Assembly: GCA_016194825.1 (NCBI GenBank)
Contig: JACQAR010000042.1
Coordinates: forward strand, 1-46,445
DNA length: 46,445 nucleotides
DNA from: Chlamydiia bacterium
GTDB lineage: Bacteria; Chlamydiota; Chlamydiia; Chlamydiales; SM23-39
Reading direction: 5' to 3'
A program made the position numbers. Below, in pieces: positions 9,001 to 15,000 of the stretch (position 1 is the first letter of the stretch; each line of letters starts with the position of its first letter).

Positions 9001-12000
9001 CACATCAGATTTAGGTTCTGGTACTGAAAGGTGTGCAGGTTCGAGTCCTGTCCTGGGCACATCCCCGGAGACATTTTCAGAAATGACGATGTCTCCACAT
9101 TTTTCATTTTCTAAGTTCTTGGTTTTCTGTAAGATAATTGCAAGTGCTGGGTTAAGCCCATCGGTTCGATATTTTCCATCTTGAAAAGTCAATTTTCCCG
9201 GGAAGATCGAACCAAGCAATTTTCGTTTAGCCTCGAGCCCAGCCTCTTGAAAATACCAAGTCAAATCTTTCAAAAGGCTCATTCCATACCGGGTGTACTT
9301 CTGAAAAGCGGTATCAGTAATTTCCAAGTCAGCAATTTGGATATTTCCGCGCTTGGCCTCTTCTATAGCCTTACGGCAGATTCCTTCAATCTCACCCTCA
9401 AACAGAGCTTCCGCTGCGATGGTAGCCTTATTTCTAATTCCTCTTGGTCTGCCAAGAGGATTCCCCGAGCGCCCCTTTCTAAATTTCCCCTGTTTTTTCT
9501 CTGTTTTATCAGGCATATTTTCTAAAAGCTCTTTTATAGTTTTTCATAAAATAGCACTAAATAGAATGAGCTGCTAGAATAAATATCTCTTTCCTAAAGG
9601 CAAAATTCTATGACATGTGATAGTTATTATTGGAAAGCTAAATTAGCAAAAGAAGCATCTTTAATTGAACGATGGATTTCTAAGTCTTCTCTTAAACGTG
9701 ATCGGTTGCTAGACGAAAAAATCACAGCTATATGATTTTGCGTCCCCTAAAACAGAAGCGCTAAATATTAAAGATCTTTCAAATTTGATAAGGCATGAGA
9801 TTGTTTTTCTAATTGAAGACGATCAGTTTTTAGTTACTTCTGATTTTGAATCAGACTCATGCCTCTATTGTGTAAAATATATAGATTTTATAAAAGTTAT
9901 GCGAACTGTGGCTTTTTCAGATATAGTAGAAGCCAGAAGTATCAGGACTAAAAAAAGCAGGGGTAGGAGGGTTTTGGTTGCTGCTCGATACGGTTTTGAT
10001 GTAGAGACTTTATCTCAATTTCAAATAAAAATGCCTTATGCTAGTGAGCTTGTCTAGGCAGTTGCTCGCGCAGTTTAATGTTAACGTAACTTACAGGAAT
10101 AGAATGGGTTGTGATAGTCTATTGCGCCGCTATTGCGCCGCGTGGCTTATTTTGGCGCAATCGAAACAGGGTACCAAAGTGCGCTACGGGTAGTTCCTTT
10201 GTTGTAAATGGCGCTTTGAATTTTCAGCTCCTTCACAAGTTTTTGTACCTGATCTTTGGAGAGCATTGGAAGAACCTGCATTAATTCCTGAAGGCGGCTG
10301 CCGGTTTGAGCATGGGCGATAATATGTTTCAGCAACAACTCTTTATTCGTTGCTCGATCAAGGCCTAACTTACGAGTATAGGCTCCACTTTTCCCGATAA
10401 AGCTATAGTAACGACGAGAGAACAAGTATCGGACTCCTCGTCCACGACCATGTTTTTCTAAAATTCCAGCCTCTATCAAGTGTTTGATGTTTGATTGCCA
10501 TTTTTGGGGGATTTGTTCTTCTCTCTGAATTAAATCTAAAATGAGAAAATCCTCGATTGAAAAGCTGCGTAAACGCTCTTGACCAATCTTTTCTAAAAAT
10601 CTCAAGAAACTCGGATCTTGAATATCGCCTAAAAGGGTAAGAAAAACCTGGGTGGTATCTGTATGATCAAAGTTAGGAAGTGGTTTACCCTGACAAATTG
10701 TTTCTTTAAAAATAAGATTGGCTCCTTGGCCAGAACGTTCAACAAGCCCGCATTTCAAAAAGATCTCAGCAATACGACGGTTTCTTGGATGTTGTTTCCA
10801 CAATATATTTTCCGGAGTAATTCCATCTGGAAGCCCTCCGGGACTTTGAATTTCTATTTTTCGAGGGAATTGGCGTACAAAAACCGATCCTGCCGATCGG
10901 TAATCTCGGTGAGCCACAGCGTTTAGTACGGCTTCTCGAACAACTTTTTCGTTAAAAGTAGGAACATCTAGAACAATAAACCCATCTTGAAAATGTTGTT
11001 TATCATTCCGCAGATTAATTGTTTGCCAGAGCTCGTCAAAATAGAGAAGAAATCCCTTAGTAAATTCGATCCGTTGTTGGGCAGGACCCGGCTCTTCATT
11101 AGATCGGTATTCAAAAACAACTTCTCCCTGAGGTAAAAGGGAACGTAGAGCGTGATTTTTCCCAAGTAAAATCAAGGCGGCATAGGTTATTCCTTCTCGA
11201 TTGATGAGCTCTGCATCTGTTAACAGCTGTAAAATGGGCAAATGAGCAAGAGCTTCATTATCTGATTTGCGAAGCCATAAAGACCGTAACTTTTCGATTG
11301 CCGCGGGATCTAAGTGGTCAATAGTTGCTCCTTTGCAAACTTGCTCTGAAAAATCAGGATCTGTTTCAGCAAAAATCCGCTTCAGCATATCTTTTGTCAT
11401 TGGAACTAAACTCTCTCCAGCGCGCATCCAATACGCTCCCTCATACTCAATGCCATCTCCTCGAGGTCTAGGAGGTGCATGAAAAACTAATACACGCCCT
11501 TGAGGACATTCCATTTCTTGGATTTCGATTCTCAATCGCAATTTTTGAGTAATGCTCAACTTGCAACGATTCAAATCGACAAAGGCTTGTGTGCCTACAA
11601 TCAATCGAGGTTTCTTGTCGGATACTCCCAGGATCAGTTTGCCCCCGCCTTCGTTTGAAAGCGCTGCACAATATTTTGCTAATTTTTCTATAGAAAAATC
11701 TGCTTTTGCTTCTTTGAATTCGATACGCTCGTTTTCATTGCGAATCTGAAGAAGCTCTTGCAATTCGTCTAGGAGAATGTTCACTGATTGCCTGTAGTAT
11801 AACTTTGGCAAGAATACTAAACAAATTGAAGAATTTCTTCTAGTATTCTGAAAGTTGGGCGTGTCCAACATTGAAAAGAGGATTGGTTTTTGCAGAACTT
11901 GCAGATATTCTTTTTAACCACTAATAATCTTGGTGGTTCAAGAGATTTTCCTCAACCAACTCCGCTCTCAAAACATGACCATTTTGTTGAGGTCAACAAA

Positions 12001-15000
12001 ATGGTCATTTCTTTCAAAGTTAACATGGAAATCAACATAGAAATACATGGAAATCAAAATTTTCCATGTTTCCATCATGCATTACGCAACTTTTGCAAAA
12101 CGGTGCAATACATGGACTAACATATTCATTGTTGGTAGTTACGAGAATGGAAAGTGCTTAATCGCGAGTAAGCGTTCTAATAAGATTTGCCTAGCTCCTC
12201 TTGTTCCAGCAATGCAAGTTCCTCATCAGTCAGGGACGTTTCTACCAATTCAATAGGCACGCCTTGCTCTTCAATCATGGCAACGCGATATCCCTTCAAT
12301 GGGCTGTAAGGCCCAAAAAGGATTTTGCATCCCTTTATCTCAGCATCCAAATCATCAACTTGAAAGGCGATATGAGGGACTTGGGTTACCAATTCTGGGA
12401 GGCCGTGTCCTTCTGGAAAACGGTGCCATTGAATATGCCATTTGTTCCCTTCGAAAGGGGTAGAGTAAAACTTAAAACCACCTACTTCAACGAGACTTTC
12501 ATCTTGCCGCTTTTCGGTCGTTGGAATTCCATAATGGTGGTACTTGCGCATCTAAGAATTATCCTTTTTGAACTGAGTAATGAAGGTGCTAATGTGATCA
12601 ATAGCTTCCTGCCCTTCAGGGACTTTCGATGCAAAGAGTTGCCAGCAGTGAACCATTTCAGGCCATACCTCCAGAGTAACTGAAACTCCGTTCGCTTCTG
12701 CTTTTTTTGCAACAGCAATAGCTTCGTCTCTGAGAATTTCGGACGCTCCTACTTGGATTAGAAGAGGCGGTAAACCTTGCAGGTTGCCGAATAACGGAGA
12801 AATAAGTGGGTTGGTCGGTTCTTCATTTTTGCAATAGTCTCGTGCAGCTGAAGAAAGTCTGTCTACTCTAACCCAGTCTTTTTCCTTGTTAGACTCTATG
12901 GAAGTAGAAGAAAAAGTAAAGTCTACCATTGGGCAAATACAAATTGCTGCTGCTGGCTGTGATTGATTTATTTCTTTTAACTTAAGACATAAAGAAAGAA
13001 CAAGTCCTGCTCCGGCTGAAGATCCTGCAAAAAAGATGTTTGAGGGAAGATAAGAGTGATCTAGAAGCCATTGATAACTCTGCAAGGCATCTTTTAAAGC
13101 GGCTGGAAATGGAAATTCTGGGGCAAGCCTGTAGCCAATTCCTAAAACGGCGTATCCACTTGCGCGAGAAATTTTTCCCATCAGAGCATGGTGGCTTTGA
13201 ATAGAACCTGCATTAAATCCACCCCCATGTAGGAACAGAATCACCTTTTCCTTAGTTGCGTTTGGTGCAAGTGCCCAGCATGCAGGAATCGACCCAATAG
13301 AAAACGGATCGAATTTAATGTCAGGATCAGGTGGAAAGGTAGCAAGAAACTTCTCAAAATTTGCTCGTATTTCCTGGAGCGAAAGATGTGTTGAGGCAGG
13401 ACGTTTTTTTAATTGTTCTAGAAGTAAGTAGTATTCTTTACTAGCCATATTTCATGATTATAGGCTAAAAAATGAATCATGAAAACGTTTCATTCAAAAG
13501 AAGGAAAAATCTGTTATACCGCTCAAGGAGAAGGATCTTCAGCGTTCCTTCTAGTTCATAACTCAGGTGGAAGTCATGAAATGATGGATTATTCTGCTGC
13601 TCATTTCTCTAAAAGAGGAAAAGTGATTGTTCCGGATCTTCTGGGTCATGCAGCAAGCGATTCTCCTAAAGTTGAATATACTTTAAATCTTTTTGCAGAC
13701 AGCATGATTCAACTTTGTAAATATGAAAACTTAAGCCGAGTCATCTTCATTGGTCTAAATTATGGAGCCGATATCGGTATTGAAATAGCGAAAATGGCTC
13801 CCTCGCTGATTTCTCACCTCATCTTGATTGAGCCACCAATTTTTATGGAGCCTTGGATTGTCAAAGTTGTGGAGCAACAAATCAAAGACCTTGCCAATCC
13901 TCGTGAAGAATGGGCTCAAGAGACTGTCAATTCTGTGATCCTGAAAGCGCCGGATTATGAAAGAGAGATTTCTCTTAAAGCATTGAAATTGACGCCTGCT
14001 TTTGTTAAAGCCTCAACGTTTAAACACCTGTTGACTTGGGACAAAAAGCACTCTTTCAGTTGCTCCCTCCCAACTCTCATGATCCAAGCCTCACAGCCAT
14101 TTTGCACAGAAGAAAAAGCCCGGACAGTTTTTTCTAATCTTCAGGTTGGTCGTGTTGTGGGTTCTGGCCCTTGGGTGAATCTTGAAGTTCCCATTCAAGC
14201 TCATTCCATGATCGACAGATTTCTGGAAATCTATTGAAACCAGCGGTTCTATTTCATTAGAGGGGAGCTAGAAAAAGATCTGTTGTCTCGATCAAGAGGC
14301 TGTTTTCACCAATCTACCACCCTTTTCCCACTGGTTTGTCAGGTAGGGTTTCACCTTTATAAAAGGCTCCAGTTCATAAAGGTGCTTCATTCCCTCTAGA
14401 AATTGGTTCGAGAACGCTCCGGTGCTGGGCAATAATTTGATAAAATTTTGCACAGGAATCGAGCCAACGTCTTGGCTCGATTAGGACGAGAAGTGAGGAG
14501 CTTACTCCGAACCGGCGGGCTGCGGAATCGTAAAAAAGCGAAGAGCTTTTTTACGCGGAGCAGGAGTCCTGTCCTGGGCACATCCCCGGAGACATTTTCA
14601 GAAATGACGATGTCTCCAACTTTTCCATTTTGTAAGTTATTGGTTTTCTGTAGGATAATTGCGAGCGCTGGATTCAGTCCATTGGTTCGATTTAATTTCT
14701 ATGGAGCGCCAAAAAATCGGGCGCATAGATCGAAGGGCGGGCTGCCGGGGCTTGATGATAACACTCAATCATAATCCGGACTGAAGGATAATAGAGATCT
14801 TTTTGCTCAATGATTGAAAAATAGCTCCAGCCATTTTTCACCGTAAGATCGGAAGCGCGCTTCAGCACATATTCCATCACCTTTTCTTGCGGAGTAAATT
14901 CATTGGCATGAAATGAGACTACAAATCGATTTTCCCCAACGCGGTAATCAGAATAGCCATTCTGAAACACTCCCTCCTTTTGATAGTAGGTGGCGCAGCT

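Follow-up and report, generated by a model that had tools for sequence, protein, structure and literature searches.

In serine integrases, LI integrase among them, the attachment (att) sites attB and attP differ in the position of the outer motif, that of the zinc-ribbon domain (ZD), which in attB is 5 bp nearer to the centre (PMC3783163). According to a review of integrative and mobilizable elements (IMEs), elements with serine recombinases insert within protein genes with very short repeats; the same review sets out a three-step scenario for the accretion of cis-mobilizable elements (CIMEs) at tRNA genes (PMC5704250). Integrases of the archaeal SSV type disrupt their own gene, which is cut into two inactive halves, and have been stated to be exclusive to archaea (PMC8371274). 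Here we describe, from sequence comparison, a decayed mobile island beside the tRNA-Leu(UAG) gene of a Chlamydiia bacterium, contained in a stretch of 46,445 nucleotides (nt) (the window; GenBank assembly GCA_016194825.1, contig JACQAR010000042.1, here contig C54), whose source is a metagenome-assembled bin of 0.96 Mb that is 61% complete. The locus as a whole is probably best explained as a stack of three insertions at a tRNA-Leu(UAG) hotspot, the youngest next to the tRNA, of which the first and the third would be due to large serine recombinases (LSRs). The first layer, element A (9060–14431), would be a cargo element of 5.37 kb from a chlamydial family whose mobility relies on LSRs; layer B would be one copy of a tRNA-derived structured unit; and layer C, from 14581 to approximately 14700, would be what is left of an older related LSR element, the rest having been deleted up to a core lipoprotein gene.

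The intact relatives of the recombinase relics in this stack possess Resolvase, Recombinase and zinc-ribbon domains, as do phiC31, Bxb1, A118/LI, TP901-1 and SPbeta. The putative att sites of the chlamydial family share with those of the phiC31-, Bxb1- and LI-type serine integrases their dyad arms and a 5-bp outward displacement of the outer motif in attP relative to attB. Unlike the phiC31-type enzymes, the chlamydial LSRs target the T-arm and the 3' strand of the acceptor of tRNA genes (Leu, Phe, Thr). They further differ in a P arm that mimics a tRNA, in an attP that apparently lies within the recombinase open reading frame (ORF), and in the common occurrence of stacks in which a recombinase tail is joined to a conserved terminal segment, referred to below as the module.

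Small cargo islands stacked at a tRNA-like 3' end and associated with a serine recombinase have been described in other phyla. McMurdie and colleagues reportedly described, in 2011, ssrA-specific genomic islands of Dehalococcoides with a CcrB-like serine recombinase. Of 937 tycheposon-type elements, a tyrosine recombinase is present in 910 and an LSR in the others (10.1101/2020.12.28.424599). The chlamydial islands resemble the Dehalococcoides ssrA islands and the LSR-bearing Prochlorococcus tycheposons in these respects, a likeness at the level of description. They differ from both in that the accessible descriptions of those islands mention no P arm of the module type, no split ORF and no interleaved structured units.

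A decayed mobile island at a tRNA-Leu hotspot

The initial annotation, made from the sequence alone, had proposed a tRNA-Leu-linked direct repeat of 128 nt with a perfect core of 55 nt, bounding a more AT-rich stretch. ARAGORN, Rfam, a repeat search and a base count confirmed this arrangement. The repeat (9043–9170 and 14564–14691) is the one direct-repeat family that stands out, with 91% identity over 128 nt; compared base by base, its two copies are identical at 55/55 positions and then at 61/73 (83.6%). The windowed GC content is 0.38–0.42 over positions 9000–14500, versus 0.47–0.52 (approximately 0.49) on either side. A third copy is absent from the genome's own assembly at its 61% completeness and, with two copies only, the repeat as a whole is not dispersed.

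The neighbourhoods of tRNA-Leu(tag) from 18 genomes of the same family were compared by protein. The gene order is kept, and comprises tRNA-Pro, three genes, ExbD, tRNA-Leu(tag), a variable stretch, (a 121-amino-acid (aa) lipoprotein), a 277-aa protein, a 324-aa protein, DUF192 and a symporter. Empty sites, for which the initial annotation had suggested looking, are present in two relatives, in which the distance from the tRNA to the 277-aa core gene is 11 nt (G002) and 40 nt (G012). Other relatives have variable fillings at this position, so that the content beside tRNA-Leu(tag) is not common to all. The lipoprotein gene occupies the same position in G001 and G014, and a cluster corresponding to the lipoprotein, secreted-protein and outer-membrane-protein (OMP) genes at 14692–16954 follows tRNA-Leu(tag) in G001, G003, G005, G012 and G014. 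Because this cluster is syntenic after the tRNA in relatives, two of which have empty sites, it is part of the ancestral core, and not of an older element as had been considered.

In G006, tRNA-Leu(tag) is directly followed by a short relic of a recombinase tail and by an AlbA_2 gene that is 88% identical to the one carried by the island, whereas the flanking core proteins are 64–68% identical. G034 is a member of another family of the order, and its recombinase tail and that in the window share 87% DNA identity. Taken against the lower identity of the core, these values indicate horizontal spread. The repeat-bounded stretch of approximately 5.5 kb is a real but dead mobile island beside tRNA-Leu; the empty sites, the low GC content and the similarity to G006 support its description as tRNA-anchored, horizontally acquired and decayed. 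It is scarcely credible that the block is native and vertically inherited, with a low GC content and a repeat that have nothing to do with mobility, since beyond the absence of a working recombinase nothing speaks for such a history, and it conflicts with the empty sites, with the different content at tRNA-Leu(tag) in other relatives, with similarity to G006 and G034 at the level of horizontal transfer, and with the att arms at both ends.

Recombinase relics and attachment arms of element A

The minus strand of both repeat copies encodes the same recombinase-tail peptide (...GLNPALAIILQK...GDIVISENVSGDVPRTGL), which reads ...GLNPALAIILQKTKNLENEKCGDIVISENVSGDVPRTGL in copy 1 and ...GLNPALAIILQKTNNLQNGKVGDIVISENVSGDVPRTGL in copy 2. 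A recombinase-tail remnant after each copy had been recognized initially; the type of recombinase is corrected here. Intact homologues are a gene of 572 aa in G029 and a gene of 540 aa in G091, both with Resolvase, Recombinase and Zn_ribbon_recom domains, and the last ~100 residues of these enzymes match the ORF in the window (tblastn E value of 1.8e-33 with residues 429–529 of the G029 recombinase; 69% identity with residues 420–530 of the G091 enzyme). The tail is 57–80% identical to the C termini of the LSR genes in G029 and G034; the element copy of G034 is 80% identical, and its recombinase is broken by an insertion sequence (IS). The remnant is therefore, by homology, the tail of an LSR and not of a tyrosine integrase. 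The 3' ends of the intact recombinase genes run without a stop into the antisense strand of a tRNA, tRNA-Leu(caa) in G029 and tRNA-Phe in G091. The tail frame in the window also runs antisense into its tRNA, and the residues 'PRTGLEP...' of the remnant are the tRNA read backwards.

No intact recombinase is left between the repeat copies, as had been stated, and neither a Resolvase domain nor the cognate enzyme was found anywhere in the 61%-complete assembly. A tyrosine recombinase gene or remnant was likewise not found, with no Phage_integrase match in the window and a sole match in the assembly, on contig C76. The ORFs adjoining tRNA-Leu are DUF5681 and LSR tail. With a catalytic gene that is represented in the window by its last ~100 codons only, and that is present in G029 and G091, the window copy is a relic of an LSR element and not a working member.

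The two parts are joined in a chimeric ORF of 184 aa (Table 1). Codons 1 to ~60, at about 9336–9516, belong to DUF5681 (residues 8–63, Pfam E value of 3.5e-9; tblastn also matches DUF5681 residues 1–64), and the last ~100 codons of the LSR, at about 9061–9336, make up residues ~60–162 (tblastn). G034 keeps DUF5681 and the LSR tail 2.3 kb apart, with the IS-disrupted recombinase body in between. The ORF is a deletion chimera of the start of an upstream DUF5681 gene and the end of the recombinase gene. Similar DUF5681::tail fusions with differing junctions are present in metagenome proteins P0001, P0005 and P0009 and at loci L125 (3634–4135) and L156 (3650–4129), and deletion of the recombinase body is therefore recurrent. 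A natural DUF5681::tail domain architecture was considered and rejected, as the junctions differ in each fusion and the parts are 2.3 kb apart in G034. These fusions, that in the window included, are independent and in frame, and three of them break DUF5681 at residues 58–63; the shared breakpoint may reflect a deletion hotspot, or selection for keeping the first 60 residues.

Both att arms of element A are intact. In tRNA sense, the end of tRNA-Leu reads GGTTCGAG-TCCTGTC-CTGGGCA, and the module at the right end of element A terminates in a mimic of this sequence with AACGC placed after GGTTCGAG and TCCGGTG in place of TCCTGTC. The distance from GGTTCGA to the discriminator is exactly 27 nt in 82 of 88 distinct modules, versus 22 nt in tRNAs, and the last 7–14 nt of the module match a tRNA acceptor end (the block is TCCGGTCATCGGCA in the Leu-caa lineage). 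When the module end is joined to the tail start, a dyad TCCGG-N14-CCGGA is obtained, with TTGTCCGGT-N12-ACCGGACAA as its counterpart in the Leu-caa lineage. The dyad half-sites and the 5-nt motif shift between module ends and tRNAs match the published signature of serine-integrase sites (PMC3783163), on the basis of which we infer that the P arm is formed by the module end, the P' arm by the ~38 nt with which the tail begins (9060–9097), and the B arm by the T-arm and acceptor of the tRNA; the assignment of protein domains to the motifs of these sites is presumptive in the same sense. Within the P' arm, the inverted repeat GGAGACAT (9067–9074)/ATGTCTCC (9089–9096) encloses a loop of 14 nt and is followed by a T-rich run. 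This hairpin is terminator-like by inspection only; a consensus terminator scan made no call at 9067–9096, the loop being above the limit of the scan.

The heptamer CTGGGCA is the only stretch common to the tRNA end and the module end (14425–14431), and at both junctions it is met by the diverging P-type TCCGGTG and B-type TCCTGTC, which would place the crossover of element A within these 7 nt. In the proposed mechanism, the ends of the element join in a circle to give an attP composed of the module-end P arm and the P' arm. The LSR would pair this attP with an attB formed by the T-arm and the 3' acceptor strand of the tRNA gene and cross over within CTGGGCA at the acceptor end; the tRNA would stay intact and gain a hairpin and a T-run from the element. 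The natural target of this LSR family would be the nearly universal T-arm and acceptor end of tRNAs, and the logic of attP and attB can be read directly from the sequence. The several lineages of the family offer a natural set on which the structural model of site choice by serine integrases can be tested. At native tRNA genes, enzymes of the family might insert DNA with no landing pad installed beforehand, including in environmental chlamydiae, for which few genetic tools are available.

The 55-nt core of the repeat is 52/55 identical in G034 and 51/55 identical in G006, which belong to other genera and families; the next 73 nt are 79–85% identical to G034 and unrelated in G006. Because 51–52 of the 55 positions are kept in elements of other genomes, the 55-mer is not one fresh duplication. 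As judged from these alignments it consists of 17 nt of tRNA and a constrained att arm of 38 nt, and is no sign of a very recent duplication. A perfect direct repeat of 55 nt would also be expected from a circular molecule or from recombination between tails, and the source is a metagenome bin; a Campbell-type homologous recombination event or an assembly artefact could have threaded in a 5.5-kb circle or population variant through the 55-mer. We consider this very improbable, given that syntenic chlamydial core genes flank the island on either side within one contig, that G006 has a related cargo gene and a tail relic at the same tRNA, and that the tails differ at 12/73 distal positions, each being as close to G034 as to the other, and so are not the two ends of one recent duplication.

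Element A resembles CIMEs and the products of tandem accretion (ICESt1/ICESt3 and streptococcal IMEs) in that it keeps its attL and attR flanks, has lost its integration gene by deletion, with a DUF5681::tail fusion left in its place, and stands in tandem with older relics at the end of a tRNA gene, as the three-step scenario has it (PMC5704250). The deletion, which would have fused the first ~60 codons of DUF5681 to the last ~100 codons of the recombinase, would have left element A unable to move by itself. Unlike described CIMEs, which have tyrosine integrases and derive from conjugative or mobilizable elements, the driver here is an LSR, and the intact relatives in G091 and G029 lack genes for transfer or replication and contain just a MerR-type helix-turn-helix gene and metabolic cargo. 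Element A may be regarded as a CIME-like relic, with mobilization in trans predicted by analogy.

Table 1 Features of the tRNA-Leu(UAG) locus in the window
Feature	Position	Strand	Description
tRNA-Leu(UAG), intact	8978–9059	+	Rfam RF00005, 54.7 bits; ARAGORN places tRNA-Leu(tag) at 8978–9060
Chimeric 184-aa ORF	8962–9516	−	DUF5681 N-terminal part and LSR tail, then tRNA-antisense read-through
Putative crossover window CTGGGCA, 7 nt	9053–9059		Only stretch common to the tRNA end and the module end
Putative P' half-site of element A	9060–9097		Inverted repeat and T-rich run; with 9043–9059 makes up the 55-nt core
AlbA_2 (Schlafen-like) and HATPase_c_4 protein, 574 aa	10147–11871	−	Pfam E values of 4e-15 and 3.5e-14
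124-aa ORF, VOC/glyoxalase label not confirmed	12177–12551	−	No Pfam match; PDB methylmalonyl-CoA epimerase at an E value of 0.22 only
HSL-type esterase (Abhydrolase_3), 298 aa	12552–13448	−	Pfam E value of 5e-57
Alpha/beta hydrolase (Abhydrolase_1), 252 aa	13479–14237	+	Pfam E value of 1.8e-8
Module, 46-codon frame (L)PSTGAFSNQFLEGMKHLYELEPFIKVKPYLTNQWEKGGRLVKTAS, then stop	14292–14432	−	Proposed detached recombinase C terminus; right end of element A
Putative P half-site GGTTCGAG-AACGC-TCCGGTG-CTGGGCA	14405–14431		Mimic of tRNA T-arm and acceptor
Structured unit, 149 nt	14432–14580	+	Fold z = −3.3; copies at other tRNAs
Tail relic of older LSR element C	14581–14702	−	P' arm and ~37 recombinase-tail codons, ~111–122 nt

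The module and the position of attP

Positions 14322–14431 of the window are 89% identical in DNA to the far end of the G034 element. The module is present in 44 of 301 genomes of the order (54 matches) and, among metagenomes, in 92 stretches. In every case its open frame is short, and the open frame upstream of it never exceeds 146 codons in the 301 genomes and in JGI metagenome contigs. Synonymous differences number 1058 in the module frame versus 130–911 in the other five frames, and the stop is conserved, as is a terminal K-x-Y-K-R-A-[VS] motif. In Rfam scans that covered the window region and three related loci, tRNAs were the only matches, and the module falls in no RNA family described there. 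Wherever a tRNA and a recombinase lie on one stretch, the order is tRNA, recombinase, cargo and module, with the module at the far end and on the strand of the recombinase. This architecture is found in G091, G107, G182, G039, G224, G238 and G248, and on ten metagenome contigs, with the tRNA on the expected side and strand in 10/10. The right end of the young element A is, from these comparisons, at 14431 and not at 14563.

None of the intact or near-intact recombinases of the chlamydial LSR family has a stop before the core. The codon phase at the core is the same in the tail (GTG CCC) and in the module (xTG CCC), and the tail/module junctions are in frame in all 14 of the 14 cases found by pattern, as well as in G107, G182 and G224. 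One ORF across attP should therefore be encoded by the circular form, and attP probably lies inside the recombinase ORF. This ORF would read ...ISENVSGDVP/STGAFSNQFLEG...TAS followed by a stop, and integration would swap the last 46 recombinase codons for read-through into the tRNA antisense strand. We see even chances that the LSR family as such is defined by a tRNA-mimic P arm with a 5-bp spacer, an in-frame crossover and an exchange of the last 46 residues on integration.

The proposed attP in the integrase gene, with a product changed by integration, would be shared with the 'suicidal' integrases of archaeal SSV1, pTN3 and pT26-2. It differs from the SSV type in that the enzyme is a serine recombinase, the host is chlamydial, and only 46 C-terminal codons would be detached, the catalytic domains remaining together. 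In Myxococcus phage Mx8, the tyrosine integrase gene intP is changed to intX on integration, and the 46-codon exchange is nearer to this case than to the archaeal halving of genes, although the Mx8 enzyme is a tyrosine recombinase. An attP within the ORF would, to our knowledge, have no precedent among serine recombinases. If true, the recombinase would carry its own switch between a form belonging to the circle and one belonging to the integrated element, which would couple the form of the enzyme to the state of integration. Such an attP would also stand outside the statement that recombinases disrupting their own gene are found in archaea only (PMC8371274), as a milder serine analogue.

Several observations weigh against this interpretation. 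An uninterrupted ORF of recombinase and module was not found among 5.8 billion protein clusters, in two region-restricted searches that covered two module subtypes with a chimeric circular form reconstructed for searching only; it is also absent among the 54 module matches in the 301 genomes and the 92 metagenome modules. In-frame continuity across lineages amounts to one inherited property of the family, not to many independent events. Antisense frame 1 of the module is also rich in synonymous-like differences (911), and the coding signal is clear, not overwhelming. Module ends do not always correspond to the adjacent tRNA: the module of G034 has a Thr-type end at tRNA-Leu(tag) (L019 5540–5570), and that of G039:C4 has a Leu-caa-type end plus a trailer at tRNA-Thr (L073 6598–6729), which suggests an exchange of ends or composite excision. 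The nearest case to a joined ORF is a divergent LSR with two frameshifts that runs directly into the module (L112 209–1847; metagenome contig Ga0206928_1412), the only nearly whole recombinase contiguous with a module.

The same data bear on the proposal that the module is an independent gene of ~46 codons with its own start at the att junction, encoding for example a regulator or a directionality factor, and that attP lies between two genes; the recombinase frame that is open into the tRNA would then be incidental. The first module codon is a potential start in 85 of 96 modules (TTG in 36, ATG in 25 and GTG in 24; for example, window 14430–14432) and is never CTG, many modules have a stop 0–3 codons upstream, and a contiguous ORF of recombinase and module is found in none of the databases searched. 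A ribosome-binding context is not conserved, however, because the upstream sequence differs at every locus; moreover, a separate gene would not account for the lack of a stop before the core in every intact or near-intact recombinase or for the frame at every tail/module junction, and ends joined at the shared core necessarily give one ORF. We regard a separate gene as doubtful and retain an attP within the recombinase ORF. The start codons at the module could reflect its own translation after integration, or avoidance of G after the tRNA discriminator.

In G224 (L075 3231–3280 and 10525–10620), a stretch of at least 45 nt is common to the sequences 3' of tRNA-Phe and 3' of the module 7 kb away, and this tRNA-Phe has no recombinase tail after it; a simple attL/attR model does not foresee such an arrangement.

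Structured unit, older element and cargo

From the module end (14431) to repeat copy 2 (14564) runs a spacer of 132 nt, which is hairpin-rich (z = −3.3) and forms part of the structured unit of layer B. The unit in the window has a copy of the tRNA 5' acceptor strand (GCACAGG, 14450–14456), a hairpin (14457–14467/14472–14482), a conserved GACGAGAAGTG-hairpin-GAACCGGCGGG arrangement (hairpin 14529–14539/14545–14555), and, at 14564–14580, the true 3' end of the tRNA copied from the T-loop onwards. On contig C97 of the same assembly, the core of the unit is present twice in tandem after tRNA-Lys (G000:C97:10071–10252; L101 3059–3295), each copy having 110 nt and ending in the last 16 nt of tRNA-Lys. 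In relatives it is found at tRNA-Leu(tag) (three times in G321), at tRNA-Tyr (twice in G216), at tRNA-Leu(caa) (G315) and also in G014 (loci L103, L102, L104 and L038). The general unit comprises 110–150 nt and stands, singly or in tandem, directly 3' of tRNA genes (Leu, Lys, Tyr, Phe). Its parts are, in order, a copy of the tRNA 5' acceptor strand, the hairpin GAGCCAA-N-TTGGCTC, the conserved A(C/T)GAGAAGTG, a second hairpin that varies among copies (at least eight kinds, with stems that are fully compensated), and GAACCGGCGGG with the tRNA 3' end from the T-loop after it. The unit belongs to no Rfam family, as judged from the scans of the window region and three related loci.

The 17-nt end of the unit is of the true-tRNA type (GAGTCCTGTC), not of the module type. 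The first 17 nt of repeat copy 2 belong to the unit and are of this type, and the unit therefore formed at a real tRNA. It is a candidate for a processed tRNA-like RNA or for a recombination landing pad. A decayed second tRNA-Leu at 14459–14580 was considered and rejected: similarity to a tRNA body is absent, ARAGORN and Rfam are silent, and the unit follows other tRNAs with matching ends. In G014 (L038 9960–10030), and similarly at L077 and L076, a near-perfect palindrome of ~50 bp lies right after the tRNA gene; its components are the 3' acceptor strand of the tRNA, a terminator hairpin and the acceptor strand again in inverted orientation.

A stop at 14699–14701 closes the frame of element C, the relic of which adjoins the stop codon of the core lipoprotein gene or overlaps with it. 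The far boundary of the older element, described initially as not identifiable, is thereby placed at about 14691–14702. The distal 73 nt of its tail are identical to the tail of G034 at 62/73 positions and to copy 1 at 61/73; as this tail is no closer to copy 1 than to G034, it is not a local duplicate, and A and C are distinct lineages. Two successive integrations at the same tRNA, both decayed, had been envisaged. More than one related insertion did occur, and the layers are three, not two, because 14432–14580 is a separate tRNA-linked unit with copies after tRNA-Lys in the same genome. In the order of events that we propose, element C would have inserted first and later been deleted to ~111–122 nt, the unit would have arisen at the tRNA end, and element A would have inserted last, between the tRNA and the unit, before losing its recombinase.

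A model of two layers would describe one island at 9061–14563 with attL and attR of the tyrosine-integrase kind, and one older element perhaps including the lipoprotein/OMP cluster. It draws on a direct repeat of 128 nt that begins inside the T-loop, as in many att sites of tyrosine integrases, and on tandem accretion at tRNA genes, which is well documented (PMC5704250). We consider it improbable, since the window holds no tyrosine recombinase or remnant of one and the remnant present derives from an LSR, since 14431 is where the conserved module and its P-type arm end, since 14432–14580 is an independent unit with copies elsewhere, and since the downstream cluster is syntenic core. Two points count against the three-insertion stack that we prefer. 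Stacks with tail/module junctions are common, though recombination of attP with attL is not expected of serine integrases; either the LSR family is permissive or the stacks have another origin. In addition, a perfect 55-mer in a 61%-complete metagenome-assembled genome could mislead an assembler. The annotation of the locus is revised in that the 184-aa ORF is a deletion chimera, the island ends at 14431 and the lipoprotein/OMP genes are core.

The cargo of element A is listed in Table 1. From the gene list given initially, the AlbA_2/HATPase_c_4 protein, the HSL-type esterase and the further hydrolase were recovered by Pfam, and the VOC protein was not. The AlbA_2/HATPase_c_4 protein gave weak and partial PADLOC matches (E values of 4e-10 to 2e-8) to the pAgo and Aga SIR2-PNTD models, which probably reflect a shared domain rather than a defence system. 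The remaining cargo gave no PADLOC match, and a defence system in the cargo is not claimed. Among the core genes upstream of the island, an ORF of 308 aa (6231–7157, minus strand) stays open through the antisense strand of tRNA-Pro (6241–6318), and in relatives of this ORF the tRNA-encoded part matches separately from the protein body.

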